Counted from the first letter of the stretch, positions 26,669 to 47,010 are shown. The stretch is DNA of 64,000 nt from an uncultured Candidatus Binatia bacterium (GCA_965214605.1 OZ243961.1:3808001-3872000); one strand, 5' to 3'. The notes: generated from the sequence alone by a model not told the origin. Translations and numbers: made by a program.

Positions 26669-27213
26669 TGTTCCTGCAGATGGCGGAGGTAATTCACGAT
26701 ATCCCAGCGCTCTTTGATTGACAGCGCGTGGCCATAGCTGGGCATAATGATACCTCCGCTGCGGATCGTCGCATAGATGTAGCCGTCTTTTTGGCGTTTA
26801 ATGCGCGCGGCGTGAAGGTCTGACGACGGAATGCCTCTGCCAACAACCGGGCCATCGCCTCTGCCGTAGGGGCCATGACACGCCGTGCAGTAGATCTGAA
26901 ACAGAGTCTTGCCGCTGGCCAGGGACTCCGCTGAGGTCGGACCTGGGTTTCTAAGACGGAGCCCGGCTCTGATCCGCGCCGACATCCGCGCGGACATGGG
27001 TGGCTCAATCCCAGTCGCCGGGACGGTGTGAGGCGGTGGAGGCTGTGGGGCTGTACCGACCGCGAGTTCAGGCTGGCCGTACATGTCGGTGTTCCACGGC
27101 AGGCTATGGCCGTGCTGAGCGGCCAGGACCACCGCCGTTCCGACTAGCAGGCAAAACAGCCCCCGTTTCGCCCCGTTGGAGCACGAGGACCGGGGGTTAC
27201 ACACCTTGGCCAT
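26665..27213 (-). CDS. actE: Alternative complex III monoheme cytochrome c ActE
   Basis: DMY.QP, P.HTVP, CTACHG..G.GDG, DG.IY..I..G...MPSY...L...RW.IVNY.R.LQ. Confidence 0.85.
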   Translation of the reverse strand: MAKVCNPRSSCSNGAKRGLFCLLVGTAVVLAAQHGHSLPWNTDMYGQPELAVGTAPQPPPPHTVPATGIEPPMSARMSARIRAGLRLRNPGPTSAESLASGKTLFQIYCTACHGPYGRGDGPVVGRGIPSSDLHAARIKRQKDGYIYATIRSGGIIMPSYGHALSIKERWDIVNYLRHLQEQ

Positions 27214-29068: not shown

Positions 29069-29092
29069 GCCGCAGGGGTGAGCCGCCAGCCT

Positions 29093-32000
29093 TTAGCTGC
29101 CTCTGCGCTTGACGACTCTTTTGAGGTAGGTCACCGCCGGTTTGGTGTTGAGGTGCTCCAAGATGGTGTAGGCGCGTAGGTCTTGGTGGTGCTGGGAGAC
29201 GACGCTATGGGGGTCTTCCAGGTTACCAAAACGAATCGCCTGGGTTGGGCACGTCTGGGCACAGGCTGGGGTGATCTCGCCGTCCCGGACCGGACGGTTT
29301 TCGTCTTTGGCCCGATCTTTGCCCTCCTGAATCCGCTGGACGCAGAAGGTGCACTTCTCCATCACCCCAGCTTCTCGTACGGTGACATCGGGGTTAAGCT
29401 GAAGGTGGAGCGGTTCGGGCCACTCGGCCTGCGACCAGTTGAAACGGCGTACCTTATAGGGACAGTTGTTCGAGCAGTAGCGGGTGCCGACGCACCGGTT
29501 GTAGATCTGGGCGTTTAGGCCCTCCGGACTATGATAGGTGGCGTACACCGGGCAGACTGGCTCGCATGGGGCGTTGCCGCACTGCTGACACAACATGGGG
29601 GCAAAGGCCACCGTCGGGGCATCGGGGTCCCAGTGCTGGGGGGAAGTATCCGTAAAATAGCGCTCAATCCGCAGCCAGGCCATCTCACGACCCTGGGCTA
29701 CCGATTCCTTGCCGACCGTCGGGATATTGTTCTCGGCGTAACACGCCGTCACACACGCCCCGCACCCGATACAGGCCGATAGGTCGACCGTCATGCCCCA
29801 GCGGTATTGTTCGTACTCCAATTCAGGGTACATGTCGTACCCACTGTGTCCGTTATGGTAGCCATCGCCGGACGGTGCGCCGGGGCCGGTGTTGGACTGC
29901 TCGGCCAGCGCGGCCGCTGTGACGGATTGGGCTATACCACGCCCGATCTGGGTGTGACTGCCTGTCGTGGTGACGAGGGGCTCACGGCGTCCGGCCCGCG
30001 CGACTTGCACCCGGGTCGAGAACCAGGCCAACCCCCCATCCTTGGCGTCGGCCGGCAACAGGTGAATCGGGTTGGCACCGCGTCCGGTCGCATAGCGACC
30101 GTAGCTGGTATGGCCCTGGCCAACCGGCATGGCCAGCAGGTCCGACTGCATGTGGGGGTACAGGTGGGCCGGGGCTTCAAGCATGCCGTGATCCGAGCGC
30201 AGGATCAGCACGTCGCCGTCCTGGATGCCAAGCCGAGCCGCGGTCTGGGGATGGACATCGATCCAAGAGTCCCACACCACCTTGGTTATTGGATCGGGCA
30301 GCTCCTGCAGCCAAGGTTTGTTTGCTCCCCGCCCGTCAAAATAGCGTGAGGACGGATACAGCATAAGGGGCAGGGAGGAGTCTTGAGGACCGGACAGTTC
30401 CGGCACCTCAAACGTCTGATCGTAGACGGCTGCCGACAGTTCGACTGTTATCGGTCGGGTCGCTTCCCAGTAGCCTCCGCGCTGCACGGCCTCCCGCCAA
30501 AAGGTGTCAAAATCCGGCTCTGTCTCGGGTACGGCCCGGTGGTAAATCGTCTTCCATGAGTCCTGGAGACACTCAAAGAAGTTGTTCCAGGGCAGGGGAG
30601 CTTGGTTGGGGACCTCTTCGTTGGGTTCCGGCGCTGCGTGTGTCCGAGTTGGGGCCGCTTGAGACAGTTGGGCAGCAACCGAGAGCAAGACATCACCCAT
30701 TGGCCGGGTGTCAAAAACCGGGGCCATAACCGGCTGCATCAAGGCGTGAACACCAGGACGCGGACTGCTATCGCCCCAGCTCTCCAGCGGGCTGTGGTCG
30801 GGCAGCACGAGGTCGGCACGCTTGGTCGTCTCATCAAGGAAGGACGAGAAGCTGACGATAAAAGGGACCTGTTCAAGGGCCTTGGCAAATCCGCTGGCCT
30901 GGGGCGTGCTAAAGACCGGGTTGGTATGAGCCAACAGCAGGAGCGGGACATAGCCGTCCTGCATTGCTGTGATAAGCGATTGGAGCGAGGTATAGGGATG
31001 CACCTGCCTTGGTCTGTGGTCGGCTTCAAACTGAACGGTCTGACCAATATTACCGGCCACGTAGTTCAGCACTAGGACGGCCACCTGACTTGCCGTCGCC
31101 TGTCGTGAGCTTGTCGCCACTCCACTCCCAATCGCCAGGCTTGGCCGCCGAGTCGCAAAATCGTGGGCTAGGTTTTCAATTCGCCAGGTCGGCACCCTTG
31201 TCAGCTCGGCGACCCGCTGCAACGAGTAGGGGGCCAGCAGGGCGCTAAATTTTTGCACTTCCGACGCTGACAGTGTATTGGAGAGCTTTTTGTCAACAAT
31301 GATTCGGGCCATACCGAGAGCCACAAACGCCTCTCTGCCGGCTTGAATACTGATCCACGTATCAGCGTTCGCACCGGTTTGCGACAACCGCGGTTCGACC
31401 TGAACAAAGCGGCCGGCCCCGCTTCGCATTTTGCCAAACGCCTTGGCGTAGGCGACCGGGGAGCGCCACGTCTCCAGAAAGTCTGCGCCAAAGCCGACCA
31501 GAAACCTGGCCTTGTCTATCGCATAGCTGGGTGTGGGATGATTAAAACAAATCTCACTTGCCTCGTGCAGCGACTCATAGGCAAACGGTTCATAGATGAC
31601 CATCCGCTGCGAGCCAAGTCTGCCTAACCATTGATTCACCAAGTGCTGCAGACTGTCGCCGAGCTGGCTGGCCAGAAACGCCGTCTGAGCCAGCTGGCCT
31701 TGGGCGCGGAGGGTCCGGAGTTTGTCTACCAGGGTCTGTTGGGCATCGTGCCACGAAATCGCCCGCAGGGTTCCAGCCGCGTCTCGGGCTAGCGGTTGGC
31801 GGATCCGGTCTGGATTATACAGTCCTTGTAGCGCCGCCTGGCCCCGGGCACACAAGGCGCCGGCGTTGACCGGCTGAGATGGGTTGCCCTCGGCTTTGAC
31901 CGCCCGGCCCTCGCGGGTGCGGACTAGCATGCCGCAGCCGGCTGGACATTCTCGACAGGTAGTGGCGTAGTAGCTGGCAACTCCGGGGACGATGTCCTCG

Positions 32001-32113
32001 GGTTGAATAACGTAGGGAATAATTCTCTCGACCGGCCCCGAAGCACAGCTGACCAGCGGTGCGGTTGAGCCGACGCCAACTAGTTTGAGAAAATTTCGGC
32101 GATCAATTCCCAT
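29093..32113 (-). CDS. actB: Alternative complex III ActB (Tat-exported molybdopterin-oxidoreductase-like domain + ferredoxin domain)
   Basis: RRNFLK Tat motif, ANKPWLQELPDPITKVVWD, CIGCGAC..AC..ENN, GREM.W.RI, CQQC..APCEPVCP, YNRCVGTRYCSNNCPYK, GVMEKCTFCVQRI. Confidence 0.92.
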   Translation of the reverse strand: MGIDRRNFLKLVGVGSTAPLVSCASGPVERIIPYVIQPEDIVPGVASYYATTCRECPAGCGMLVRTREGRAVKAEGNPSQPVNAGALCARGQAALQGLYNPDRIRQPLARDAAGTLRAISWHDAQQTLVDKLRTLRAQGQLAQTAFLASQLGDSLQHLVNQWLGRLGSQRMVIYEPFAYESLHEASEICFNHPTPSYAIDKARFLVGFGADFLETWRSPVAYAKAFGKMRSGAGRFVQVEPRLSQTGANADTWISIQAGREAFVALGMARIIVDKKLSNTLSASEVQKFSALLAPYSLQRVAELTRVPTWRIENLAHDFATRRPSLAIGSGVATSSRQATASQVAVLVLNYVAGNIGQTVQFEADHRPRQVHPYTSLQSLITAMQDGYVPLLLLAHTNPVFSTPQASGFAKALEQVPFIVSFSSFLDETTKRADLVLPDHSPLESWGDSSPRPGVHALMQPVMAPVFDTRPMGDVLLSVAAQLSQAAPTRTHAAPEPNEEVPNQAPLPWNNFFECLQDSWKTIYHRAVPETEPDFDTFWREAVQRGGYWEATRPITVELSAAVYDQTFEVPELSGPQDSSLPLMLYPSSRYFDGRGANKPWLQELPDPITKVVWDSWIDVHPQTAARLGIQDGDVLILRSDHGMLEAPAHLYPHMQSDLLAMPVGQGHTSYGRYATGRGANPIHLLPADAKDGGLAWFSTRVQVARAGRREPLVTTTGSHTQIGRGIAQSVTAAALAEQSNTGPGAPSGDGYHNGHSGYDMYPELEYEQYRWGMTVDLSACIGCGACVTACYAENNIPTVGKESVAQGREMAWLRIERYFTDTSPQHWDPDAPTVAFAPMLCQQCGNAPCEPVCPVYATYHSPEGLNAQIYNRCVGTRYCSNNCPYKVRRFNWSQAEWPEPLHLQLNPDVTVREAGVMEKCTFCVQRIQEGKDRAKDENRPVRDGEITPACAQTCPTQAIRFGNLEDPHSVVSQHHQDLRAYTILEHLNTKPAVTYLKRVVKRRGS

Positions 32114-32134
32114 ACGCGCAATCCATGTTATGGC

Positions 32135-32755
32135 TCAATAATGGCATACCAGACAGTCTTTATCCGCCTGCTGGGCCTCATGGCACGTCACACACCAGCC
32201 CATTTTCAGTGAAGACACCTGCTCGACCCGCTCCATTCGAGTCACCTGGCCGTGACAGCTGTAGCACTCAACGCCGGCTCGAATATGCCGTTTGTGGGTG
32301 AAGCGGGTAAAGAGGGGCAGCTTATGCACCCGCAACCAGGGGATGGGTTCTCGGCGTTGCCAGTAGTCCTGCACTTTGAGCAGCTCGGGCTTATCCGTGG
32401 CTCTTTTGTGACAGCCGATACATGCCTCGAGCGACGGAAGACCAGCCTGGGGAGAGATGCGGGCGGCGCTGTGGCAGTACAGGCAATCAAGTTTGTACTG
32501 GCCGGCGTGCAGGGCATGACTAAAAGCAACCGGCTGGCGAGGAGCCTTGCCCCAACCGGTCAGGCCTAGGTCAATGATGTAAAAATCCCACCAGGCTGCC
32601 TTTCCCTCATTCCACACGCCTCGGCTGACCTCCCGACTATGTAAAGCGGTGAGCACGCCGAGCCCAGCGATAATGAGGACAAGGAAGCGGAAGTATGAGC
32701 GTGATGTCGGTGTTGACTGCATGACGCTATAGCCCCGACGCTGGGCTGTCCTCAT
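32135..32755 (-). CDS. actA: Alternative complex III pentaheme cytochrome c ActA
   Basis: N-terminal TM, QPV.FSH..HAG, five CxxCH motifs (CLYCH, CIGCH, CYSCH, CVTCH, CLVCH), L.MGWC. The start may be 32722. Confidence 0.9.
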   Translation of the reverse strand: MRTAQRRGYSVMQSTPTSRSYFRFLVLIIAGLGVLTALHSREVSRGVWNEGKAAWWDFYIIDLGLTGWGKAPRQPVAFSHALHAGQYKLDCLYCHSAARISPQAGLPSLEACIGCHKRATDKPELLKVQDYWQRREPIPWLRVHKLPLFTRFTHKRHIRAGVECYSCHGQVTRMERVEQVSSLKMGWCVTCHEAQQADKDCLVCHY

Positions 32756-32922
32756 ATACAGAGGACAAGGACAACGCGCAAGGCTTAACGGCGGTGGACA
32801 CCCTGCTTATAACCACCCAAGTGTGAGGATGAGTGGATGAATTCCCCTTGACCCGTTGCGAAAAAGGCAGTACCTTTCGACCGCATTCAGCCGGACTTCT
32901 CCGTCCGGAGGAGGAAAAACGT

Positions 32923-34944
32923 ATGCAATACAGAGGTTTGCAAAAGCTGCTCCGAAGTACGCTCGCTGGAAGCGCGATATTGTTTGTTTTACCAATTGAG
33001 GCATCTGCCGTAGGCGGGAAGTCTGAGACACCTGAATCGACGCCGACAGCCGCAGCAGTCGCTCCGGCCACCCCTGTTGAGTCTCCAAATGGTGGGTCTG
33101 GTAAGAGTCCGGCGGAGACGGCGGGCACCAGGCCATCCCCGGCCGTTGAGCCTCACGACGATGGGTCTGGCGAGAGTCCGGCGGAGACGGCGGAGACTAG
33201 TCCCCCTGAATCGACGCCGACAGCTGCAGCAATCGCTCCGGCCACCCCTGTTGAGTCTCCAACGGAGACGGCGGGCACCAGGCCATCCCCGGCGCCCGTC
33301 AAAAACGGTACGTCCCAGATCGGCGACTTTAAGCCAATTACCCACGATCGTCTGCTCAAAGGCACTAAAGATCCCTCGGCATGGTTGATGTACGGTGGTA
33401 GCTATGACAGCACCCGCTTTAGCCCATTGACCGATATTAACCGTACCAATGTGAAAAAACTCCAGGCGGCCTGGATGTTTCAAACTGGGGTCCCGGCTCA
33501 GTTCCAAGCCTCACCGGTTGTGGCTGACGGCATTATGTATATGACGGCCGCCTTTAACCATGTGTATGCGCTTCATGCCGAAACGGGCGAGATGCTGTGG
33601 CGCTATGATCACCCGCTGCCCAGTGATATGCGGGTGTGCTGCGGCCCAAGCAACCGGGGGGTGGCGATTAGCGGCGATAAGGTCTTTATGGCCACCCTGG
33701 ACGCCCGCCTGATTGCCCTCCAGGCCCAAACCGGCGCTCTAGTCTGGCAGGTCGAGATGGACGATTATCGTAAAGGCTATAGCGCAACAGCCGCGCCCCT
33801 TATCGTTAAGGACAAAGTCATCGTTGGGATCGCCGGTGGTGAGTATGGAATTCGGGGCTATGTCGACGCCTATGATATAGAGACCGGAGAGCGCAAGTGG
33901 CGCCGTTACACCACCCCGGGTGAGGGTGAACCTGGGTCTGAAACCTGGGCTGGCGATTCGTGGAAGATTGGCGGCGGGCCGACCTGGATTACCGGCTCCT
34001 ACGATCCTGAGCAGGACGTGATTTTTTGGGCGACCGGCAACCCGTCTCCTGACTGGAACGGCGACGTCCGTGAGGGAGATAATCTGTATACCGACTCGGT
34101 GTTAGCCTTGGAGCCGGCAACTGGCGCGATTAAGTGGTATTTTCAGTTTACGCCGCACGATATCTGGGACTACGACGGCAATACCGATCTGTTTCTGATT
34201 GATGTTGAACGGGGCGGGAAGACCATCAAAGCTTTGGCTCAACCTAATCGCAACGGCTATCTGTATGTACTCGACCGCACCTCGGGCGAGTTTCTGCATG
34301 GCTCGCAGTATGTGGAAAAGCTCAACTGGGCCAAAGGGCTCGACGAACAGGGCCGCCCTATTGTGGACCCTGAATATGTGCCGACCAAGGAGGCCGGAAA
34401 GTTTATCTGCCCCGGCTCGGTTGGCGGAAAAAACGGCTCGTGGACCGCTGCCTATAGTCCGGTCACCAAGTATATGTATCTGCCGGTGGTCGAGAGTTGC
34501 TGGCAGATGACCAAAGGGGCAGCAACTTTTATTCAGGGGATCCCTTTCTGGGGGGGAGGACCCGGCAAGACGCAGGCTGACGACCAGTCGTCCTACGGTC
34601 ATCTGTCCGCGATTGACGTGTCGAGCGGAGCGGTGAAGTGGCGTTACAAAGACGACTATCCCTTGGTCGGCGGCACTATGGCCACGGCGGGAGGCTTGGT
34701 GTTTAGTGGCGATCAAAAGGGCTATGCGCTGGCGTTTGACGACACAACAGGAGAACTACTGTGGAAGTTCCAGACCGGCTCGACCGTACGTGGCCAGCCG
34801 GCGACCTACAAGGTCAACGGCCGTCAATACGTGGCGATTCCGAGTGGTGGTGGAGGCTTGGCTGTGTCTCTGGTCGGCGAAAACCCGCTCGCGTCCAAAG
34901 GTAGTGCTCTGTTTGTGTTTGCCCTACCCGAAGGTGAAGAATGA
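32923..34944 (+). CDS. PQQ-dependent dehydrogenase, methanol/ethanol family (paralog 2), with Pro/Ala/Thr/Ser-rich repeated N-terminal linker
   Basis: GGAGGAGG RBS. VCCGPSNRG, GGEYG.RG, GNP.PDWNG, HDIWDYDG, NRNG. Divergent from actA. Confidence 0.92.
   Translation: MQYRGLQKLLRSTLAGSAILFVLPIEASAVGGKSETPESTPTAAAVAPATPVESPNGGSGKSPAETAGTRPSPAVEPHDDGSGESPAETAETSPPESTPTAAAIAPATPVESPTETAGTRPSPAPVKNGTSQIGDFKPITHDRLLKGTKDPSAWLMYGGSYDSTRFSPLTDINRTNVKKLQAAWMFQTGVPAQFQASPVVADGIMYMTAAFNHVYALHAETGEMLWRYDHPLPSDMRVCCGPSNRGVAISGDKVFMATLDARLIALQAQTGALVWQVEMDDYRKGYSATAAPLIVKDKVIVGIAGGEYGIRGYVDAYDIETGERKWRRYTTPGEGEPGSETWAGDSWKIGGGPTWITGSYDPEQDVIFWATGNPSPDWNGDVREGDNLYTDSVLALEPATGAIKWYFQFTPHDIWDYDGNTDLFLIDVERGGKTIKALAQPNRNGYLYVLDRTSGEFLHGSQYVEKLNWAKGLDEQGRPIVDPEYVPTKEAGKFICPGSVGGKNGSWTAAYSPVTKYMYLPVVESCWQMTKGAATFIQGIPFWGGGPGKTQADDQSSYGHLSAIDVSSGAVKWRYKDDYPLVGGTMATAGGLVFSGDQKGYALAFDDTTGELLWKFQTGSTVRGQPATYKVNGRQYVAIPSGGGGLAVSLVGENPLASKGSALFVFALPEGEE
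33031..33295 (+). repeat. Intragenic direct repeats in the dehydrogenase linker
   Basis: 58 bp unit cctgaatcgacgccgacagc...gagtctccaa at 33031-33088 and 33205-33262, plus repeated cggagacggcgggcaccaggccatccccggc and gggtctgg..agagtccggcggagacggcgg. Confidence 0.9.
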
Positions 34945-38439: not shown

Positions 38440-38769
38440 TTAGCCTTCGTCTTCAATAGCCGCCCGCACGATTGGCCCAAGCTCGCCGCTTTGGTGCATC
38501 TCTTGGATAATATCGCACCCGCCAATGAACTCGCCTTTGACGTACACCTGCGGAATCGTCGGCCAGTTCGAATAGCGTTTGATGCCCTCCCGAACGGCTG
38601 GATTCTGGAGGACATCAACCGTTTCATAGGGGACGCCGAGCGAATCAAAGATTTGAATCGTGGCGGCCGAGAAGCCACACATGGGGAACTGCGGGTTGCC
38701 TTTCATGAATATGAGGATTGGGGTATCTTTGACATGCTGACCGATTTGGCTGAGAATATCGTCTGCCAT
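38440..38769 (-). CDS. grxD: Monothiol glutaredoxin (Grx4)
   Basis: [30 protein letters not shown]. Confidence 0.95.
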
Positions 38770-38829
38770 ACACAGTACTCCTTCAGTATGGTGGGTGGAT
38801 GAAAAGAGTCTCAATTGAGACTCGCCAAA

Positions 38830-39123
38830 TTACGGGGTTTTAGCCGGCTGTATGGTCAGGACGCTGGCCGCTTCGGCCTGCGCCTCTTCCGGGGTGAGGG
38901 TGCTGAGCTTCAAGGCATGAATGCGTTCCACCATGGCGTCTTGCAGTGCCCCATACACCATCCGGTGACGGGTAACTTTCATTTTGCCGCTAAACGACGC
39001 AGAGATGACGAGCGCTTCGTAGTGATCCCCCCCACCGGTGAGATCCTGGATTTTGACCTTGGCATCAGGAATCCCTTGGATAATGAGTTGGCTGATTTCC
39101 TCAGCCGTTATCGGTTCAGGCAT
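38830..39123 (-). CDS. bolA: BolA/IbaG family protein
   Basis: DL.GGGDHY...VIS..F.GK..V.RHRMVY.AL...IHAL.L. Confidence 0.92.
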   Translation of the reverse strand: MPEPITAEEISQLIIQGIPDAKVKIQDLTGGGDHYEALVISASFSGKMKVTRHRMVYGALQDAMVERIHALKLSTLTPEEAQAEAASVLTIQPAKTP

Positions 39124-39316: not shown

Positions 39317-39433
39317 TTATTTCTTCTGCATTGCTTCCCCACAGCACTTCACGGTGCCGTCTCCACCTTTGGTGACAATGATCTGGCCGCCACACTTTCC
39401 ACACAGGTACATTTTTCCGAGTTGGTTGGCCAT
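39317..39433 (-). CDS. 38 aa desulforedoxin-like CxxC...CC metal-binding protein (not in ORF track)
   Basis: AGGAGG RBS. MANQLGKMYLCGKCGGQIIVTKGGDGTVKCCGEAMQKK*. Confidence 0.85.
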   Translation of the reverse strand: MANQLGKMYLCGKCGGQIIVTKGGDGTVKCCGEAMQKK

Positions 39434-39481
39434 GAACTATCCTCCTGTTCAAAATATATGCCGCCTTATTGTGCGGGGTTT

Positions 39482-40246
39482 TTAGTTTCCCGTAAAGACC
39501 GGCTTGCGTTTTGCCAAGAAGGCGGAGACGCCCTCGGCTCTGTCTTGGGTCGTTTGGAGTAAGACGTACAGGTCTTCCTCAAGGCGGGTGCCCTGATCCA
39601 AGCTCAGATCCATGGCCTTGAGCACGGCCTCTTTGCCAAGGCGCAGGGCAAGGGGGCCTTTCTCCAGCAGACCGCTGAGGACCTCATCAACCCGGGTGGC
39701 AAAACGGTCTGGCTCGATCGTCTCTGTCACAAGACCAATCTGTTGCGCCTGGCTCGCATCAATACGCTTGGCGGTCAGAATCAGCTCTAGCGCCTTGGCC
39801 TGGCCGATAATGCGAGGCAGGCGTTGGGTGCCGCCGCAAAACGGGATCAGGCCCTCGGTCAGCTGTGGGAGAGCGAGCTGCGCGCCGGCTTTTGCCAGAC
39901 GCAGGTCACAGGCCAACGCTAGTTCTAGGCCGACCCCTATGGCGTCACCGTTTAGTACGGCGATGGCCGGCTTGGTGAGGGCTCCCACCTGCTCGACACA
40001 CGCCAGCGAACCAAACTGCTGACGAATGCTATGGGCGGTCGTTTCGGGCGGATACTCAAGACCGGTGCAGAACGCCTCGCCTTGACCGGTCAGCAGCAGG
40101 ATTTCGACCTCGTCGTCGTTTTCAACCGCTTCGCACGCCGCGGCTAGATCCTGGGCCATAGCCGGAGTGAGTCGGTTGCCGTTGTCAGGTCGATTCAAAC
40201 CCAACCAGGCAAAACGCCCGTGGGTGGTGTAGGTGAGGTCTGACAT
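39482..40246 (-). CDS. Enoyl-CoA hydratase/isomerase (crotonase) family protein
   Basis: LNRP..GN, AFCTG, KP.IA..NG.A.G.GLELALACD.R, GGTQRLPR..G, EG..AFL.KR.P.F.G. Confidence 0.9.
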   Translation of the reverse strand: MSDLTYTTHGRFAWLGLNRPDNGNRLTPAMAQDLAAACEAVENDDEVEILLLTGQGEAFCTGLEYPPETTAHSIRQQFGSLACVEQVGALTKPAIAVLNGDAIGVGLELALACDLRLAKAGAQLALPQLTEGLIPFCGGTQRLPRIIGQAKALELILTAKRIDASQAQQIGLVTETIEPDRFATRVDEVLSGLLEKGPLALRLGKEAVLKAMDLSLDQGTRLEEDLYVLLQTTQDRAEGVSAFLAKRKPVFTGN

Positions 40247-40263
40247 AGCCGGCCAGAAAAATC

Positions 40264-41820
40264 TTAGCCTCCGTACCCGGCGCGGAGTTCCTTTTTCAGG
40301 ATCTTGCCCATATGGTTTTTGGGCAATTCGTCCATGAAGTGGATATCTTCGGGTTTCTTAAAGCTCGACAGCCGTTCGCGGCAGAACTCTCCTAACTCGT
40401 CTTCGGTCACTGTTTGGCCCGAACGAACCGCGACAAAGGCGGCAATCTTTTGCCCCCACTGTTCGTCAGGTACCCCGATAATGGCTGCTTCATCAACCGC
40501 GGGATGGGCGTGCAACACGGCTTCGATTTCGGCCGGAGCTATATTTTCGCCGCCCCGAATAATGATGTCGTCTTTGCGACCGACCAGGTAAATATAGCCG
40601 TCCTGATCAAGATAGCCCATGTCTCGGGTATGGAGCCACCCCTCATTATCGAACAGCGCCGCGGTTGCACTCTCCTGGCCGGCGTAGCCTTTCATGGCGC
40701 GCGGGGTACGAATCACGACCTCACCGATCTCGTCGGCTGGCAGTGGTTTGTTGTCGTCGTCAAGGATGGCGACCTCGACGTCGGGCAGCGGTTTGCCAAC
40801 AGAGGTGAGCCGCTTGAGGTTGCGCTCGATTTCTTCCTGACTGCCGTTAAGCTTATGGTCCTCTGGGCCAAGCACCGATAGGGTCGAGTTCGTCTCGGTC
40901 TGGCCGAAGGCATTGACAAAGCCGGTGCTATCGGGAAACAGCTCGATCGCCTTGCGAATGACCGGAAAGGGCATGGGCGCGCCCCCGTAGGACAGGTTTT
41001 CAAGGCTCGACAGATCGTAGTTGGAAAATTCCGGATGATCGATCAGCTGTTTCATCATGGTCGGCACAACAAAGGCGTGAGTGGCTTTTTCGTTTTGTAC
41101 CGCAGCGAGCCACTCTTGGGCATCAAACTGACGCAAAATGACGATTTTACGGCCGGACCACATGGCGGTCATGATATTCATCGTGCCCGCGATATGATAC
41201 AGCGGGGCGCACAGCAGCGAGGTGCCGCGTGGGGTGCCGTCGGCCATTTCGACCGTTCCGACAACATAGTTGGTAAAACCACCGTAGGTCAGCATCACGC
41301 CCTTTGGCAGCGAGGTGGTTCCGCTGGTGTACATTAGAATCGACAGGTCTTCTTCGTCCACTTCGGCGTCTTCAATCTCGGGCGAGCCCGTGGCAATCAG
41401 GTCCTCGTGGAGGTGCATGCCGGGTTGACCGCTCTCCATTGCCACGTAGTGCTGAATCATCGGAAACTTTGGTTTCAGCTGCTGAAGCAGGGGCAGATAG
41501 CGATCACCGATAAACAAAACTTTCACATCTGCGGCGGTGATCATATGCTCTAGTTCGGGCGGTTTGGCCCGGTAGTTGAGCGGGACAAAGGTCGCGCCTA
41601 GGGTCGCGGTCGCGTAATACGCTTCAATGTACTGATTGGAGTTGGTCTGGAGGGCGGCGACTCGGTCGCCGGGGCCCACGCCAAACTCTTGCAGACTACT
41701 GGCCAGCCGGCGAACACGCTCAAGCGTTTCGCCGTAGGTCTGTCGTTTGTCCTCAAAAACGAGGATTTCCTGATCGGCCAGCATCATACCGGGAAGACTG
41801 AGAAAATTCGCAGTGTTCAT
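40264..41820 (-). CDS. AMP-dependent acyl-adenylate ligase (acyl-CoA synthetase family)
   Basis: YTSGTTSLPKGV, PLYHIAG, YGGAPMP, FGQTE, WLHT.D.G, GR.DD.I.RGGENI.P.EIE, GKILK. Confidence 0.93.
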   Translation of the reverse strand: MNTANFLSLPGMMLADQEILVFEDKRQTYGETLERVRRLASSLQEFGVGPGDRVAALQTNSNQYIEAYYATATLGATFVPLNYRAKPPELEHMITAADVKVLFIGDRYLPLLQQLKPKFPMIQHYVAMESGQPGMHLHEDLIATGSPEIEDAEVDEEDLSILMYTSGTTSLPKGVMLTYGGFTNYVVGTVEMADGTPRGTSLLCAPLYHIAGTMNIMTAMWSGRKIVILRQFDAQEWLAAVQNEKATHAFVVPTMMKQLIDHPEFSNYDLSSLENLSYGGAPMPFPVIRKAIELFPDSTGFVNAFGQTETNSTLSVLGPEDHKLNGSQEEIERNLKRLTSVGKPLPDVEVAILDDDNKPLPADEIGEVVIRTPRAMKGYAGQESATAALFDNEGWLHTRDMGYLDQDGYIYLVGRKDDIIIRGGENIAPAEIEAVLHAHPAVDEAAIIGVPDEQWGQKIAAFVAVRSGQTVTEDELGEFCRERLSSFKKPEDIHFMDELPKNHMGKILKKELRAGYGG

Positions 41821-41911
41821 AGTTACTCCTCTTGCATAGTAACGGTACAGCCGTTTCAGCTATCAGCCTTGAACCAAGATGACAAGATACGGTGCTGCTG
41901 CGACGCACACG

Positions 41912-42613
41912 CTAGAGGCGGGAAAACAGGCGCTGTTCCAGTCTGAGACCCTCGCCTAAGGGGAGATCTAGGCTCTGTCGAACCGCGCGCTTGGCCAGGG
42001 ATACGAGCTGCGGGTCGTGTTGGGCCAGGCTGGTGGCTAGCGTTTTTGCCGCTGCTAACAGGTCCCCGCGCGGCACGACTCGGTTGGTCAGGCCGATCTG
42101 AAGCGCCTGATCGGCGCTCACCCGCTTGCCCGTCAGAACCATATCAAGAGCACGTCCAAGGCCGATTGCCCGGGGCGCGGTCTGCGTACCGGCAACGCCT
42201 GGAATCATCCCCAGCCCGGTTTCCGGCAAAAAGAAAACCGTGTCGTCAGCGGCAATACACAGGTCACACAACAGGGCCATTTCCATGCCACCGCCCACGG
42301 TAAAGCCGTGCACCGCTGCAATCGTTGGCTGGGGGAGGCGAAGCAGCGTGCCCCACACGTCGCGTTGCCAGCGTATGGCACGCGCCCCGATCGGAGAGGG
42401 GGCCGAGCCAAACTCCGATACATCCCCGCCGGTTGAAAAGGCTGGGCCCTCACCACGCAGAATCATCACCCGCACCTCAGGGTCCTCACCGACAGCTTGG
42501 AGTACCTCGTACAGACCGTCGCGCATTTCCACGTTGTAGGCGTTGAACACCGTGGGGCGGTTTAACGACACAATGGCCAGACTGTCTTCTTTTTGGTAGA
42601 TGACGGCCGCCAT
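41912..42613 (-). CDS. Enoyl-CoA hydratase/isomerase family protein (C-terminally short)
   Basis: LNRP...NA, AFSTGGD, GGGMEMAL.CD, LPE..LG.IPG..GTQ. Confidence 0.9.
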   Translation of the reverse strand: MAAVIYQKEDSLAIVSLNRPTVFNAYNVEMRDGLYEVLQAVGEDPEVRVMILRGEGPAFSTGGDVSEFGSAPSPIGARAIRWQRDVWGTLLRLPQPTIAAVHGFTVGGGMEMALLCDLCIAADDTVFFLPETGLGMIPGVAGTQTAPRAIGLGRALDMVLTGKRVSADQALQIGLTNRVVPRGDLLAAAKTLATSLAQHDPQLVSLAKRAVRQSLDLPLGEGLRLEQRLFSRL

Positions 42614-42655
42614 ACCTAGTCAGTAACGGGTCGGGAGTGTTGAGTAAAGAGTCAT

Positions 42656-44206
42656 CTACGTCCCCTGCCATACGACTTTGCCACCGACAAGTGTTGTCGT
42701 CACCGATAACGAACCGATGGCGGACTCGGGAAGTGCGGTCATATCACCGCTAAGGATTACCAAGTCTGCCAGCATTCCCGGAACGATTCTGCCCTTCTTC
42801 TCTTCTTCAAAGCCTACCCAGGCGGCCGCGCTCGTGAAAAGACCCAGGGCTTGGGCCAGGCTCACCCGCTCCGCCGCATTCACTTCCCGGCCGCCCTCAG
42901 ACTGTCTAGTGCAGGCCACAGCTATGCTTGCCAGCGGTGCCAGCGGTCCAATAGGACAGTCTGAGCTGCCCGCCACCGGGATGTGGTGATCGATCAAGCT
43001 GCTCGTCCTATACAGCCAGGAGTGGACTTCGGGAGCAACCTCGGCCGTGTATCTTTCTCCATACCAACGCACAAATGCGGGCTGAGTGACAACCGCGCAG
43101 CCGCTTGCTTTCAGCTGCTCAAGAAACGGTGGGGGACACAGCGAACAGTGTTCGATCCGGTGTCGGTGATCTGACCGCCACAGACGGTGCTGCGCCTGTT
43201 CAACTGCATCAAGAGCCAGGCCGATCGTCGCTTCCTCGACGGCGTGGAAGGCCAGCTGAAAGCCATGTTGATGGGCACGCCAGACCATTTCTCTGAGCGT
43301 CTGTGGCTGTGGATGGAGCGCCCCCCGGCTCTCGTGCAGCATAATTTTGATACTGCCCAGGCGGACCTGATCGTCCCCGCTAAAAGGCCTCAGCCGCGCT
43401 TCGAGGAGCTGCTCCAAGGCGTCAATGCCGATCATGACCGTGGCCCGCGAAGTCAGCAAGCCGTCTGTGGTTAGCTGTTGAAAGACAGATACATCCTCAA
43501 GAGTATTGCCCGCGCTAGCATCGTGGAATGAGGTCACGCCTAGGCGCAGTAACTCTTGCCCAGCTCGTTTTATGCCGGCCCGAAAGTCGGCCGCAGGCAG
43601 GCGAGGAATAACGGTCCGCAGAAAGGGTTCAAGCTCGTACACCACGCCTGTTGGTCGGCCGCTGGGGTCACGTTCGGCGTGTCCTCCGTGGCGGTCGCTA
43701 AAGGAGGGGCCGATTCCGGCTTGGTTGAGGCCTACGCTGTTGAGCACGGCGGCATGGCCGGACCGATGGCGGATCACAACCGGTCTCTCACGACACACCG
43801 CGTCAAGATCGTACCGGGTTGGATGGCGTTTTTCGGTTAGCAGAAATTCGTCGTACCCGTAGCCACGCAGCCATCCTCCGGGTTGGAGTCCGGGCAAACC
43901 AAGCGCCAGAGTGCGGCGCAGTTCGGCAAAAGACCGAACTTGGCTGAGATCCGCACCACAAAACCGGCTTGCCCAAGAGAAGAGGTGTAGATGCGGATCA
44001 ATGAAGCCGGGCAGGACGGTCTGCCCATGACAGTCCAGCAGTCGGGTTTGCCGCGAAATATAGGGCCGCAGCTCGGCCGCTCTCCCAACCGCTACGACTC
44101 GATCTCCTGCGATGGCGAGGGCTTCAGCGGTTGGGCGGTTTGGATCTTGGCTGAGAATCCTTCCTCCATACACCACAAGGTCGGCTGGAGAGGCGGGCAA
44201 AGACAT
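42656..44206 (-). CDS. YtcJ-like amidohydrolase (amidohydrolase_3)
   Basis: PGFIDPHLH, HP.R..LD, SGH....NS, HA(V), HRIEH, QP.F, GSSDCP, G.I.PG.LAD.V.L. Likely ATG start at 44206. Confidence 0.9.
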   Translation of the reverse strand: MSLPASPADLVVYGGRILSQDPNRPTAEALAIAGDRVVAVGRAAELRPYISRQTRLLDCHGQTVLPGFIDPHLHLFSWASRFCGADLSQVRSFAELRRTLALGLPGLQPGGWLRGYGYDEFLLTEKRHPTRYDLDAVCRERPVVIRHRSGHAAVLNSVGLNQAGIGPSFSDRHGGHAERDPSGRPTGVVYELEPFLRTVIPRLPAADFRAGIKRAGQELLRLGVTSFHDASAGNTLEDVSVFQQLTTDGLLTSRATVMIGIDALEQLLEARLRPFSGDDQVRLGSIKIMLHESRGALHPQPQTLREMVWRAHQHGFQLAFHAVEEATIGLALDAVEQAQHRLWRSDHRHRIEHCSLCPPPFLEQLKASGCAVVTQPAFVRWYGERYTAEVAPEVHSWLYRTSSLIDHHIPVAGSSDCPIGPLAPLASIAVACTRQSEGGREVNAAERVSLAQALGLFTSAAAWVGFEEEKKGRIVPGMLADLVILSGDMTALPESAIGSLSVTTTLVGGKVVWQGT

Positions 44207-44218
44207 GGAGTCTGAGAG

Positions 44219-44250
44219 CAAAAAGGGCGATGCTACGCATCGCCCTTTTG
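44219..44250. terminator. Perfect hairpin flanked by A and T tracts, downstream of the small KPLPSSD gene
   Basis: AAAAGGGCGATGC-TAC-GCATCGCCCTTTT. Confidence 0.85.
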
Positions 44251-44276
44251 AGCTGATAATGAGGCGCAGTGCACTC

Positions 44277-44417
44277 TTAGTCCGATGACGGCAGAGGTTT
44301 TGCCTCTTTGAGCGGCATATCTGTATTGCAACAGTTCAGAGTGCCGTCACCAGGTTTATTGCACAGGACCTCAGTACCACAGGTTTCACACATATAGCGT
44401 TTTCCAAGCTGAGCCAT
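44277..44417 (-). CDS. 46 aa desulforedoxin-like CxxC...CC protein with C-terminal KPLPSSD tail (not in ORF track)
   Basis: AGGAGG RBS. MAQLGKRYICETCGTEVLCNKPGDGTLNCCNTDMPLKEAKPLPSSD*. Confidence 0.88.
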   Translation of the reverse strand: MAQLGKRYMCETCGTEVLCNKPGDGTLNCCNTDMPLKEAKPLPSSD

Positions 44418-44450
44418 GTTACCCTCCTCGCGTATATGATGCTTGCCTTC

Positions 44451-45533
44451 TCACTCCCGAAAGAATGGGAGAACACCCACCTCCGCTATCACGGACGTCC
44501 CGTTTCTGTCAATCCGCAGCTGGGTGCCCGGCTCAAGATGCTCGCGGCGGACATAGCCCAGGGCAATTGGGCAGCCCAAACGGGGAGACATGACGGCACT
44601 CGTGATCCAGCCGACCTCCTTGGTGTCGGAGAACAGCTTATCTCCGCTCTGGGGCGTTATCGTCCCCTGAACCAACAGGCCGCTCAGTTTCCGATTCACC
44701 CGTCCACGAGCCGAAGCCCGTTCAACCACCTCCTGGCCAAGATAACAGCCTTTCTTGAAGCTGATCGCGTGGTCGAGGCCGACTTCCAGAACGATGCGGT
44801 CTTCATCCATGTCAAGACCGTACCACGGAATTCCGGCCTCAATCCGTAGGGTGTTGAGCGTACTTAAACCGACCGGGCGCGCCCCGAGCGGCTGTCCGGC
44901 CTCCACCAGGGCCTGCCACACGGCCTCAGCCCGCGGCAGTGGAACCAGGAGTTCGTAGCCGTCCAGGCCCGTATCAGGCGTCCGAACGATACGGACGGTC
45001 GTCTCGCCCAGCCATGCTTCCACGTGTTGGCAGGCGTCGGTCAGATTGAGCGACACTCCGGCTGCGGCCAACAGACGTGAGGCCAATGGCCCCAGGACAG
45101 CAAGCGTGCTCTGGTGTTGGCTGAGGTCCTCCAGCTCTACGTCATCGGCGATGATGAAGCGCTCTAGCGCGCTGACCGTCTTGTCTTTGATACGGGCGTC
45201 AAGGTCGAGCATGAAGCTGTCTTCGAGCGCGTACACCCGCAGGTCGGCAACAATCCGACCTTGGGCTGTCAACAGGGTTGCCGGGCAGCCCTGGCCGGGC
45301 TGCAAGGACCCGACATCGTTCGATACCATGCCCTGTAGAAATGAGACGCGATCTTCTCCGCTCATATCGACCTGGACCCGGAAGGATACATCGACGATCC
45401 CGGCCGTGTCGCGGACGGCCCGGTACTCCCGGCTAACATCCGTAAAGCGCTCTGGCAGGACAATCCCCCGATTATCGGACAGCACCGCCCCGTGGGCGGT
45501 GTGCCATGCCGCTAGTGGTGATTGCATACACAC
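44451..45533 (-). CDS. ygfZ: YgfZ/GcvT-like folate-binding Fe-S cluster-modifying protein
   Basis: G.DR..FLQG..SNDV, LRIEAG.P.YG.D, KGCYLGQEVV.R. Confidence 0.85.
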   Translation of the reverse strand: MCMQSPLAAWHTAHGAVLSDNRGIVLPERFTDVSREYRAVRDTAGIVDVSFRVQVDMSGEDRVSFLQGMVSNDVGSLQPGQGCPATLLTAQGRIVADLRVYALEDSFMLDLDARIKDKTVSALERFIIADDVELEDLSQHQSTLAVLGPLASRLLAAAGVSLNLTDACQHVEAWLGETTVRIVRTPDTGLDGYELLVPLPRAEAVWQALVEAGQPLGARPVGLSTLNTLRIEAGIPWYGLDMDEDRIVLEVGLDHAISFKKGCYLGQEVVERASARGRVNRKLSGLLVQGTITPQSGDKLFSDTKEVGWITSAVMSPRLGCPIALGYVRREHLEPGTQLRIDRNGTSVIAEVGVLPFFRE

Positions 45534-46644: not shown

Positions 46645-46950
46645 CTAAAGCTCAACCAGAATATCGTCGCCGTCGACTTTGACAGTATAGGTGTCCTGTT
46701 TGACGTCCGGGTCGTCAAGGTTCTCGCCGGTCGTCACATCGTATTCCCAGCCGTGCCAGGGGCAGATTATCGTCGAGCCGTCGAGGTCGCCCTCATCGAG
46801 TGGACCGCCCTGGTGGGGGCAGATATTGTCGATCGCGTAATATTGACCGTCAACCTGAAAGAGCGCAATCTGCTTATCCTCAACCTCAACACACCTCCCC
46901 CCGCCGTCTGGGATCTCACTCTTTTGGGCGACTTTGACAAAATCTCCCAT
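46645..46950 (-). CDS. Rieske [2Fe-2S] ferredoxin (NirD/dioxygenase ferredoxin-like)
   Basis: CPHQGGPL.EG ... CPWHGW.YD..TG. Confidence 0.92.
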   Translation of the reverse strand: MGDFVKVAQKSEIPDGGGRCVEVEDKQIALFQVDGQYYAIDNICPHQGGPLDEGDLDGSTIICPWHGWEYDVTTGENLDDPDVKQDTYTVKVDGDDILVEL

Positions 46951-46969
46951 GTTTTCCTCCTCAACATGC

Positions 46970-47010
46970 AAAAAAGCCCCTCTGTCAGATTGGGCAGAGA
47001 CAGAGAGGCC
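46970..47010 (-). terminator. Probable intrinsic terminator after the flavin reductase gene
   Basis: Minus strand GGCCTCTCTGTC...GACAGAGGGGC-TTTTTT. Confidence 0.6.

Follow-up and report, generated by a model that had tools for sequence, protein, structure and literature searches.

Desulforedoxin of Desulfovibrio gigas (PDB 1cfw/1dxg) is a homodimer of two units, and together with the N-terminal domain of desulfoferrodoxin it belongs to the HMM family PF06397. MbtH-like proteins are encoded beside, and are sometimes fused with, enzymes of the ANL superfamily, a subset of which they accompany, and they have no invariant free C-terminal tail. In the LysW/AmCP pathways a ligase and a hydrolase are accompanied by a small protein that has a metal ribbon and ends in a conserved acidic tail, and LysW is loaded on its terminal Glu by an ATP-grasp ligase. 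DUF35/ChsH2-type proteins, which combine a Zn-ribbon with an OB-fold, scaffold thiolases. Here we compare these systems with a bacterial gene cluster in which two mini-proteins of the PF06397 family flank the genes of a CoA-thioester pathway.

The window that we analysed is a stretch of 64,000 nt from an uncultured Candidatus Binatia bacterium. A preliminary description of it had proposed that two very short ORFs with AGGAGG ribosome-binding sites flank a block of amidohydrolase, crotonase, AMP-forming ligase and crotonase genes. As shown in Table 1, both ORFs are present on the minus strand with such a site 5 nt and 7 nt before their starts, and all four enzyme genes lie on the same strand and have Pfam matches. 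We refer to the tailed mini-protein as DxT and to the tail-less one as Dx2. The peptide that had been read for Dx2 is exact, while that for DxT is wrong at one position, residue 9 being M and not I. The gene upstream of DxT scored 79 bits with the YgfZ domain model TIGR03317 (cut-off 49), and the GcvT equivalogs stayed below their own cut-offs. The nearest solved chain to the amidohydrolase is 3icj, an uncharacterised hydrolase. No Rfam family was found between positions 38000 and 47000.

Table 1. Features of the mini-protein locus; positions are counted from the first letter of the 64,000-nt window.
Feature	Position	Strand	Remarks
DxT (tailed mini-protein)	44277..44417	-	46 aa, desulforedoxin-type, CxxC...CC, C-terminal tail ending in a free Asp; PF06397 32.6 bits
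AGGAGG ribosome-binding site of DxT	44423..44428	-	5 nt before start; read from sequence
Intrinsic-terminator-like hairpin	44221..44249	-	between DxT and the amidohydrolase gene; 13-bp perfect stem, then U
YtcJ-like metal-dependent amidohydrolase	42656..44221	-	Amidohydro_3 286 bits; ATG start probably 44206
ECH1 crotonase	41912..42613	-	ECH_1 175.6 bits; both catalytic Glu (hydratase type)
ANL (AMP-forming) acyl-CoA ligase	40264..41820	-	AMP-binding and AMP-binding_C; clade-specific acidic insertion, residues 324-334
ECH2 crotonase	39482..40246	-	ECH_1 155.4 bits; first catalytic Glu present, Gln at second position
Dx2 (tail-less mini-protein)	39317..39433	-	38 aa, desulforedoxin-type; PF06397 25.4 bits; N-half partner
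AGGAGG ribosome-binding site of Dx2	39441..39446	-	7 nt before start; read from sequence
GcvT-fold, YgfZ-like folate-binding protein (context)	44451..45533	-	GCV_T; directly upstream of DxT, 33-nt gap
BolA and glutaredoxin genes (context)	38440..39123	-	downstream of Dx2; PF01722 and PF00462

DxT and Dx2 are real genes that evolve as coding sequence. Over 56 loci the diversity at codon position 3 is 0.40–0.46 compared with 0.07–0.18 at positions 1 and 2, which is 2.5 to 6 times higher for DxT and Dx2 alike. Both proteins exceed the Pfam cut-off of 23 bits for PF06397 (Desulfoferrod_N/desulforedoxin), in keeping with the desulforedoxin-type assignment made earlier, and they are the only matches to this family in the 4.37-Mb genome. 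With the NCBIfam domain model TIGR00319 they reached 24.3 bits (DxT) and 18.8 bits (Dx2), both below its cut-off of 36.05. Each has the four-cysteine pattern CxxC...CC, and their presumed paralogy is borne out by an hhalign probability of 99.2% with 50% identity. In a collection of species-representative genomes at least one relative is encoded at 450 loci, and the family comprises 1080 representative clusters at E ≤ 0.001. We found no Pfam or NCBIfam model for its tailed or fused forms. The mini-genes are often missed by gene callers or labelled hypothetical, and the family merits a model of its own whichever of the readings discussed below holds. A PDB sequence search with a fused form gave no meaningful match, and an Atlas look-up of one relative (P0233) returned unnamed clusters only. 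Literature searches, with subscription journals and supplements outside their scope, found no publication on the tailed family. Their matches for desulforedoxin-like proteins concerned oxygen tolerance of Clostridioides difficile, those for desulfoferrodoxin with CoA ligase and enoyl-CoA hydratase amounted to a genome report only, and those for small subunits of adenylate-forming enzymes were unrelated.

Profile comparison identifies DxT and Dx2 as the halves of a single small protein. The Dx2 profile aligns with the N-terminal half of fused proteins (hhalign probability 98.5%) and the DxT profile with their C-terminal half (99.8%). Tandem Dx2-DxT genes directly follow the ligase gene in five other families of the phylum, and many other bacteria have the halves either as neighboring genes or as a single fusion of ~100 aa, with the order unchanged. 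This agrees with the earlier suggestion that the tail-less paralogue is a partner half. It also agrees with the statement that proteins ending in K.LPSSD, often as two-domain fusions, recur beside acyl-CoA ligases and crotonases; they are in fact widespread, and the anticipated fusions of the two halves run from Dx2 to DxT. An AF2 model of a fused relative (pLDDT 94, pTM 0.83) consists of two repeated beta units, and its N-terminal half superimposes on 1cfw_A with an rmsd of 1.0 Å over 36 of 36 residues at a Z-score of only 3.4. A Foldseek search of the PDB with the model of the fused relative gave no match at E ≤ 0.001.

In DxT the tail reads LKEAKPLPSSD, and its general form is P-[SAG]-[SA]-D. 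The conservation that had been anticipated for it is pronounced, with 119 of 120 relatives among the matches listed ending in this motif and an acidic small-residue end retained in 113 of 124 parsed representatives. The Cys ligands in these 124 representatives number four in 65, two in 28 and none in 27. Four cysteines (CxxC...CC) occur in 118 of 119 short relatives, and 112 of the 117 long forms retain 0 of 4 in their tailed half. Because most fused forms lose the four cysteines and keep the tail, the Cys4 metal site is dispensable and the tail is the conserved element. The loss therefore argues against the rubredoxin-like redox role that the preliminary description had held in reserve, and in favor of a structural metal site. 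Basic residues of the mini-protein are conserved in a GKRY strand, a T/N-K turn and a KEAK stretch.

The ligase is by sequence an ANL acyl-CoA ligase, with the N-domain (PF00501, 287.5 bits), the C-domain (PF13193, 82.5 bits) and the conserved Lys of the last motif, and it also scored 494 bits with NF004837 (cut-off 476). This lysine (K506) and the R-K-D-D hinge are invariant among 57 orthologues, and among solved chains M. tuberculosis FadD5 (8r2q) is the nearest. Ligases linked to the mini-protein carry an acidic insertion of 11–12 residues after the TE motif, which occurs only in this clade, and they share 18 clade-specific residues. The clade-invariant residues, which follow the TE motif directly, are kept even where the gene context is very different; the corresponding stretch of 4-coumarate ligases lines the acyl pocket. 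A quick tree, midpoint-rooted and with few outgroups, places all 48 partner-linked ligases in one group (SH-aLRT 90) that is separate from 8 other ANL paralogues. Alignment of the crotonases to 5zai gave Glu/Glu in 74 of 75 ECH1 orthologues, and for ECH2 Glu/Gln in 57 of 68 relatives and Glu/His in 4, so that the two catalytic Glu residues of hydratases are present in ECH1 and not in ECH2.

The tailed protein and the ligase clade coincide in 19 of 19 plasmids and in all 10 ligase-bearing genomes of the phylum sample, in line with the linkage to ligases that the preliminary description had expected. The plasmid figure comes from 72,556 records, 19 of which encode the mini-protein. A ligase with at least 47% identity to the ligase part of P0392 is encoded by exactly these 19, the next best ligase having 34%. 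P0392 itself is a 602-aa RefSeq protein of Nocardia sp. in which ligase and mini-protein form one chain, with the tail at its free C-terminus. On 17 of the 19 plasmids the mini-gene and the ligase gene are neighbors, and one plasmid has two mini-protein copies with a ligase beside each. Among 201 genomes sampled from the phylum, a ligase orthologue (≥48% identity; next best 41%) was found in 10, all of which fall among the 12 with a strong full-length match to the tailed protein. Of 46 testable metagenome loci of fused forms, 34 have a same-strand ligase gene that begins no more than 400 nt downstream, and in fused lineages 3–60 nt separate the mini-gene from the ligase gene. The whole series DxT-[amidohydrolase]-ECH1-ligase-ECH2-Dx2 is preserved in 60 of 80 Binatia-type loci, and the amidohydrolase is absent from 9 of these 60 complete loci.

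Other neighbors vary. Crotonases are missing near three of four inspected plasmid loci, and DUF35/ChsH2-type genes sit in some of the mini-protein gene clusters. Of the 30 metagenome loci at which both sides could be tested, 9 have no adjacent ligase gene, and the same holds for 2 of the 19 plasmids. At one locus (G152) a family-I CoA-transferase takes the place of the ligase and the mini-protein pair is kept. At another (L087) the fused gene is directly followed by a double family-III CoA-transferase, and a ligase was not found nearby. A third (G143) has the module without both mini-genes and a fused copy on a different contig.

On balance we lean towards the reading that the Dx2/DxT pair serves a single clade of AMP-forming acyl-CoA ligases as a dedicated partner without a redox function. 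The tailed mini-protein is probably a missing working part of its acyl-CoA-forming enzymes, because it travels with one branch of the acid-activating enzymes. The strict co-occurrence with the ligase clade makes the MbtH-like ligase partner, which the preliminary description had listed as an alternative, the best fit. According to this proposal Dx2 and DxT would form one small all-beta protein of two desulforedoxin-type units, whose Cys4 sites would be structural and dispensable and which would not carry electrons. Binding to the ligase, the docking surface and the role of the tail are inferred. The heterodimer may dock on the ligase via the GKRY strand, the T/N-K turn and the KEAK stretch, which would face the acidic insertion, and the proline-containing arm of ~12 residues could then place the small-small-Asp carboxyl terminus in the active-site or cofactor pocket. 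The arm would be needed for activity or for passing the product on. More broadly, the protein may be a partner of the CoA-thioester-forming step in a recurrent catabolic module made up of ligase, crotonases, often family-III CoA-transferases, and the YtcJ-like amidohydrolase. In function it would be comparable to the MbtH-like proteins that act on NRPS adenylation domains, to which it is not homologous.

Several observations fit a ligase partner less well. A pure ligase-binding subunit predicts neither the G152 nor the L087 arrangement. The ligase is not adjacent at some metagenome and plasmid loci, and the G143 module lacks the mini-genes. An accessory subunit alone also leaves unexplained why a free terminal Asp after small residues is the most conserved feature, and the hairpin behind DxT points to an excess of DxT.

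This hairpin, which had been noticed earlier as a perfect one behind the first mini-ORF, has a 13-bp perfect stem at 44221-44249, a 3-nt loop and U following. A 91-nt fold that contains it has -32.2 kcal/mol (z = -3.4 versus shuffles). In 33 of 56 related loci a hairpin lies in the same position with differing stem sequences and T-rich tails; a consensus scan for terminators did not list the DxT hairpin. Its conservation points to production of DxT beyond the level of the enzymes, which a stoichiometric substrate or carrier would fit better than a 1:1 subunit. DxT might therefore be a covalent carrier or substrate, with its terminal Asp carboxylate activated to an adenylate or a CoA thioester by the ligase or a CoA-transferase, or with an amide formed with an amine substrate as on LysW and freed by the amidohydrolase. 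We consider this reading rather unlikely. The preliminary description had proposed a related route, in which the ligase would load an acyl group on the SSD tail, the crotonases would modify it and the amidohydrolase would release it; the loci without amidohydrolase or crotonases, and the pair kept beside a CoA-transferase, fit that route less well. The small residues and terminal acid recall the GG tails of ubiquitin-like proteins and the LysW tail. ANL ligases and family-I and family-III CoA-transferases share the conversion of a carboxylate to a CoA thioester and all appear in the partner position. The ligase residues that stay invariant irrespective of context correspond to the acyl-pocket stretch of 4-coumarate ligases, and a YtcJ-like amidohydrolase recurs in three lineages. 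A doubtful variant, which we rate no higher, is that the terminal Asp on its proline-stiffened arm acts as a protein-tethered, succinate-like carboxylate that the ligase (spending ATP) or a CoA-transferase would turn into an aspartyl-CoA thioester, giving the CoA-transferases of the module a private CoA/acyl shuttle; the tail would then serve chemistry and not docking. Against a covalent role, however, the module's crotonases, acyl-CoA dehydrogenases and thiolases need ordinary acyl-CoA, which requires that an ordinary acid be activated as well. The short spacing in fused lineages, where translation is probably coupled, suits a 1:1 subunit, and the amidohydrolase is not universal. We know of no ANL enzyme that adenylates a protein C-terminus, and the literature searches yielded no paper on one.

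A regulatory or targeting role is distinctly less probable. The tail would then be a degron or a docking peptide for a universal machine such as a protease or chaperone, or the basic mini-protein would bind nucleic acid and thereby control the operon. An invariant tail across systems with different enzymes does suggest an invariant target, basic residues are conserved, and some copies have no adjacent ligase. However, a general degron or a transcription factor would not be expected to co-occur strictly with a single ligase clade or to be naturally fused to the ligase, and the plasmid clusters carry their own TetR, GntR or MarR regulators.

Because the Binatia operon is bracketed by the YgfZ-like gene and by BolA and glutaredoxin, the mini-proteins could be read as a trafficking helper for metal or Fe-S clusters, Cys4 proteins that hand iron or zinc to a partner. 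We think this very improbable. The order is conserved in Binatia-type loci, with the YgfZ-like gene preceding DxT in 78 of 80 and BolA after Dx2 in 28 of 80 (accompanied by glutaredoxin in 27), and the Cys-less fused copy of G143 follows ZnuA/ABC transporter genes. Cys-less forms, however, cannot bind metal through a Cys4 site. The bracket is moreover lineage-specific: the YgfZ-like gene was not found upstream of DxT in the other lineages examined, and the bracket is absent from loci L167-L173, the plasmids and the metagenome loci, while the link to the ligase holds across phyla. A rubredoxin- or desulforedoxin-type electron carrier for an oxidoreductase of the pathway is scarcely credible despite the PF06397 matches and four cysteines of both proteins, a relative fused to a 2Fe-2S ferredoxin domain (P0378) and ferredoxin genes near some plasmid loci, since most fused relatives have kept the tail without the four ligands of the tailed half, the conserved element is this tail and not the metal site, and the genes that constantly accompany the mini-genes are those of the ligase and crotonases and not of oxygenases or reductases.

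Lipids, steroids, terpenoids and aromatic compounds are broken down by pathways in which ANL acyl-CoA ligases are central, and biocatalysis makes wide use of these enzymes. A clade with a seemingly obligatory small partner extends over Actinomycetota, sphingomonads, Pseudomonadales-type bacteria, and Binatia and relatives; among the hosts of the plasmids are aerobic actinobacteria and sphingomonads. Should the ligases of this clade depend on the partner for activity, their recombinant forms would be inactive or misassigned when produced without it, a problem that NRPS adenylation domains posed before MbtH-like proteins were recognised. If instead the tail is covalently activated, DxT would be a carrier protein of a new class, and its ligase would be the first enzyme of the ANL superfamily to act on the C-terminus of a protein.

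Compared with the described systems, desulforedoxin and the N-terminal domain of desulfoferrodoxin share the HMM family and the CxxC...CC pattern with Dx2/DxT, and the homodimer of desulforedoxin matches their two-half design. Unlike in desulforedoxin, the two units differ from each other (as a heterodimer or a single chain), one of them carries a conserved 12-residue tail, most fused relatives have lost the metal ligands of the tailed half, and an acyl-CoA ligase rather than a redox enzyme is the constant neighbor. We rejected membership among free redox proteins on the loss of ligands in relatives. LysW/AmCP resembles DxT in size, metal ribbon, acidic tail and the company of a ligase and a hydrolase. 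In contrast to the LysW system, the enzymes of the Dx2/DxT module act on CoA thioesters, and the window operon and inspected loci have ANL ligases and CoA-transferases and no ATP-grasp (LysX/ArgX-type) gene; with this loading ligase missing from the modules, membership in the LysW group was rejected. DUF35/ChsH2-type proteins are small Cys4 zinc-ribbon proteins too, often in degenerate form, and they partner CoA-thioester enzymes in a non-catalytic role. They differ in fold and family (PF12172/PF01796 versus PF06397), in having a thiolase as partner and in having no conserved C-terminal tail. MbtH-like proteins differ in fold and show no sequence relation to Dx2/DxT; the MbtH Pfam model gave no match, even at E ≤ 1, in the proteins of the window or in eight relatives, and homology to that family was rejected. 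Like them, Dx2/DxT is a small protein encoded beside, and sometimes fused with, an ANL-superfamily enzyme and co-occurs with a subset of these enzymes, and by this analogy a non-catalytic activating role is plausible.

The window carries two mini-genes, one for a mini-protein with a C-terminal tail (DxT) and one for a tail-less mini-protein (Dx2). They lie on the minus strand and, as the preliminary description had it, around four same-strand genes encoding a YtcJ-like amidohydrolase (Amidohydro_3), a crotonase (ECH1), an AMP-forming acyl-CoA ligase of the ANL type and a second crotonase (ECH2), and the ATG of each mini-gene is preceded by AGGAGG, at 5 nt for DxT and 7 nt for Dx2. The ligase scores above the NF004837 cut-off. 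The Dx2 peptide had been read exactly and that of DxT wrongly at one letter, residue 9 being M. Both mini-proteins match the desulfoferrodoxin N-terminal domain PF06397 (DxT at 32.6 bits, Dx2 at 25.4 bits, against a curated score of 23 bits), and they are the only such matches in the whole 4.37-Mb genome. Comparison with hhalign (99.2%, 50% identity) bears out the earlier view that they are paralogues. Across 56 related loci, mini-gene diversity is 0.40–0.46 at codon position 3 and only 0.07–0.18 at positions 1 and 2, and because of this excess at third positions the mini-genes evolve under protein-level selection. It is established that both are genuine genes.

Coordinates of the mini-genes and of other genes discussed in the window
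Feature	Position	Strand	Description
DxT	44417..44277	minus	ORF, 46 aa
Dx2	39433..39317	minus	ORF, 38 aa
ECH1	41912..42613	minus	crotonase
Ligase	40264..41820	minus	ANL AMP-forming acyl-CoA ligase
ECH2	39482..40246	minus	crotonase
GcvT-fold gene	44451-45533	minus	YgfZ-like
BolA	38830-39123	minus	
Glutaredoxin	38440-38814	minus	
Alternative complex III-like genes	27197-32755	minus	ActD/NrfD, molybdopterin + 4Fe-4S subunit, multihaem cytochrome c
PQQ-dependent dehydrogenase	32833-34944	plus	
Rieske ferredoxin	46645-46971	minus	small, soluble

A search for longer relatives returned about 100 proteins of 92–111 aa that join a Dx2-like N-terminal half to a DxT-like C-terminal half, all of them terminating in a DxT-type tail. 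In profile comparisons Dx2 aligns with the N-terminal half of this fused family (98.5%) and DxT with the C-terminal half (99.8%). Five other families of the phylum have the gene order ECH2-ECH1-ligase-Dx2-DxT, with the mini-genes 20–55 nt apart. One fused member is predicted with confidence (pLDDT 94, pTM 0.83) as a pair of repeated beta units, the tail being modelled less confidently, and its N-terminal half superimposes on desulforedoxin (1cfw) at 1.0 Å over all 36 residues, with a Z of only 3.4. DxT and Dx2 are established as two halves of one protein, probably of desulforedoxin fold, and the tail-less paralogue is the partner half, as had been suggested.

Searched with an HMM, 1.84 billion representatives yielded 1080 clusters at E <= 0.001, 193 of them at E <= 1e-10. 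All four Cys are present in 118/119 single-unit relatives, and the tailed half of 112/117 long forms lacks every one of them; of 124 representatives parsed across the family, 65 have four Cys, 28 two and 27 none. The C-terminus of the same representatives is small-small-acid in 113 and P-[SAG]-[SA]-D in 96, so that the tail, whose conservation had been left to be checked, is indeed widely kept. In a diverse alignment the columns without variation are G-K-R of strand one, a single Leu, a single Gly and the Asp at the C-terminal end. The conserved element of the family is the tail and not the metal site. The tail is taken to be the functional element; the wider family can do without the metal site, which is therefore probably structural rather than redox. 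Among further architectures are forms with an additional N-terminal domain of ~65 aa and a single case fused to a 2Fe-2S ferredoxin. The Cys-less fused forms were matched by no Pfam or NCBIfam model, the nearest relatives in the PDB are desulforedoxin and desulfoferrodoxin, and a full-text literature search, with subscription journals and supplementary files outside its reach, returned nothing on the family.

A DxT profile search of species-representative genomes gave 450 loci, the best 80 of which come nearly all from MAGs labelled Binatia or 'delta proteobacterium'. The complete DxT-[amidohydrolase]-ECH1-ligase-ECH2-Dx2 series is found in 60 of these 80, most of the remaining 20 being interrupted by contig ends; the amidohydrolase gene is absent from 9 of the 60, and one locus (L060) has no ligase. 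Both catalytic Glu residues are present in ECH1 (74/75), whereas ECH2 keeps the first catalytic Glu of enoyl-CoA hydratases and has Gln (57/68) or His (4/68) at the second position. ECH2 is probably not a plain hydratase, and because ECH1 is Glu/Glu and ECH2 Glu/Gln the two crotonases probably do different jobs. Of the flanking genes, a GcvT-fold gene lies upstream of DxT in 78 of the 80 loci, and BolA lies downstream of Dx2 in 28, with a glutaredoxin gene alongside in 27. In the window the GcvT-fold gene scores above the cut-off of the YgfZ/CAF17 domain model and below those of the GcvT equivalogs, and the BolA and glutaredoxin genes are likewise downstream of Dx2. The operon is thus flanked by three genes of Fe-S-trafficking type, a bracket that is kept in Binatia-type loci and was not found in the other lineages compared. 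The window also holds alternative complex III-like genes, a PQQ-dependent dehydrogenase gene and a Rieske ferredoxin gene, the last directly upstream of a Leu/Phe/Val-dehydrogenase-like gene.

The mini-protein is established as the dedicated companion of one ANL ligase clade, and the co-occurrence with a ligase subfamily that had been proposed for checking is found in all 19 plasmid records and all 10 ligase genomes. Among 72,556 plasmid records, 19 carry the mini-protein (Rhodococcus 12, Streptomyces 3, Sphingobium 2, Sphingomonas 1 and Mycobacterium 1). When the ligase-containing fusion P0392 was used as query, plasmid ligases of 47–55% identity occurred in exactly these 19 records, the next best ligase being at 34%. 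Compared coordinates place the mini-gene beside the ligase gene in 17/19, in either order; six loci that were inspected are consistent with the association, and one plasmid has two mini-genes, each next to its own ligase. In the sample of 201 genomes of the phylum, the ligase orthologue occurs in 10 (identity of 48% or more, against 41% for the next best), each of which also belongs to the 12 genomes where a tailed match is strong and full-length; in one of the other two the contig ends immediately past Dx2, and the second is among the exceptions described below. Of 46 testable metagenome loci with the fused form, 34 have a ligase on the same strand that begins no more than 400 nt downstream; for those testable on both sides the count is 21/30. 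A quick IQ-TREE analysis that included 8 other ANL paralogues, four from the window genome, placed 48/48 partner-linked ligases in one group (SH-aLRT 90), with a convergently placed neighbour ligase as sister. An acidic insertion of 11–12 residues immediately past the TE motif, at residues 324-334 of the window ligase, is common to the clade, as are 18 positions whose residues hardly vary within the clade and are rare outside. P0392 itself (RefSeq, Nocardia sp., 602 aa; a single-member cluster) unites ligase and mini-protein in one chain, with the tail at the free end.

Several loci do not fit a simple ligase subunit. In L170 (G152:C10, 8456-9906) the genes between ECH1 and Dx2-DxT, at the site otherwise held by the ligase, encode both subunits, A and B, of a family-I CoA-transferase (PF01144); L172 has a related pair flanked by two copies of Dx2. 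Locus L087 has a double family-III CoA-transferase directly after the fused gene, and no ligase within 6 kb. Family-III CoA-transferases occur in 11/19 long metagenome loci and 3/4 plasmid loci, and four other lineages have them downstream of DxT; of the Binatia-type loci only 4/72 have one. Because CoA-transferases replace the ligase or recur at mini-protein loci, the mini-protein is tied to the CoA-thioester-forming step, most strictly to one ligase clade. Some copies adjoin acyl-CoA dehydrogenases or FAD oxidoreductases and not a ligase. In genome G143, of the same class (L174, G143:C8, 7961-13143, and L175, G143:C13), both split mini-genes are gone from the module, and a Cys-less fused copy lies elsewhere, immediately 3' of genes for ZnuA, an ABC-ATPase and an ABC-3 permease. 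For ribosomal proteins a zinc-sparing 'Cys-minus paralogue' pattern is known, and this single case is similar to it. A protein of ~346 aa follows the fused gene and ligase in 12/19 long metagenome loci (L122, 6334-7374; L093, L095, L098, L102, L108 and others); ~170 N-terminal residues without a Pfam match precede only positions 7-176, the first two thirds, of the ECH_1 profile. In another family of the phylum (L168, 3642-7927, minus strand), DxT has downstream of it, on the same strand, genes for a nitronate-monooxygenase-like protein (PF03060) and a double family-III CoA-transferase.

The perfect hairpin described 3' of DxT is present; its stem has 13 bp and its loop 3 nt, and U follows. Hairpins occur at the equivalent site in 33/56 loci, mainly of the closer clade, with T-rich tails; their stem sequences differ at this one constant site, so that conservation of the hairpin is one of structure. 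It probably terminates or attenuates a transcript carrying the YgfZ-like gene and DxT, and its conservation suggests that DxT is made in excess.

On balance we favor, with some reserve, a non-covalent enzyme partner. The conserved basic residues of the mini-protein would dock on the acidic insertion of the ligase clade, and the tail would place its terminal Asp in an enzyme pocket. The main alternative, that the carboxylate of the terminal Asp is itself converted to a CoA thioester, draws on the partner position being held by three unrelated families (ANL ligases, family-I and family-III CoA-transferases) whose common reaction is the conversion of a carboxylate to a CoA thioester. At the end of a flexible arm, the C-terminal Asp amounts to a tethered, succinate-like carboxylate, and such chemistry would account both for the invariant free terminus and for the conserved hairpin; it is without known precedent, and we consider it unlikely. 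Redox, metal-trafficking and regulatory roles of the mini-protein are minor alternatives. The non-covalent partner role proposed here for the mini-protein is similar to that of MbtH, although the mini-protein has no homology to it.
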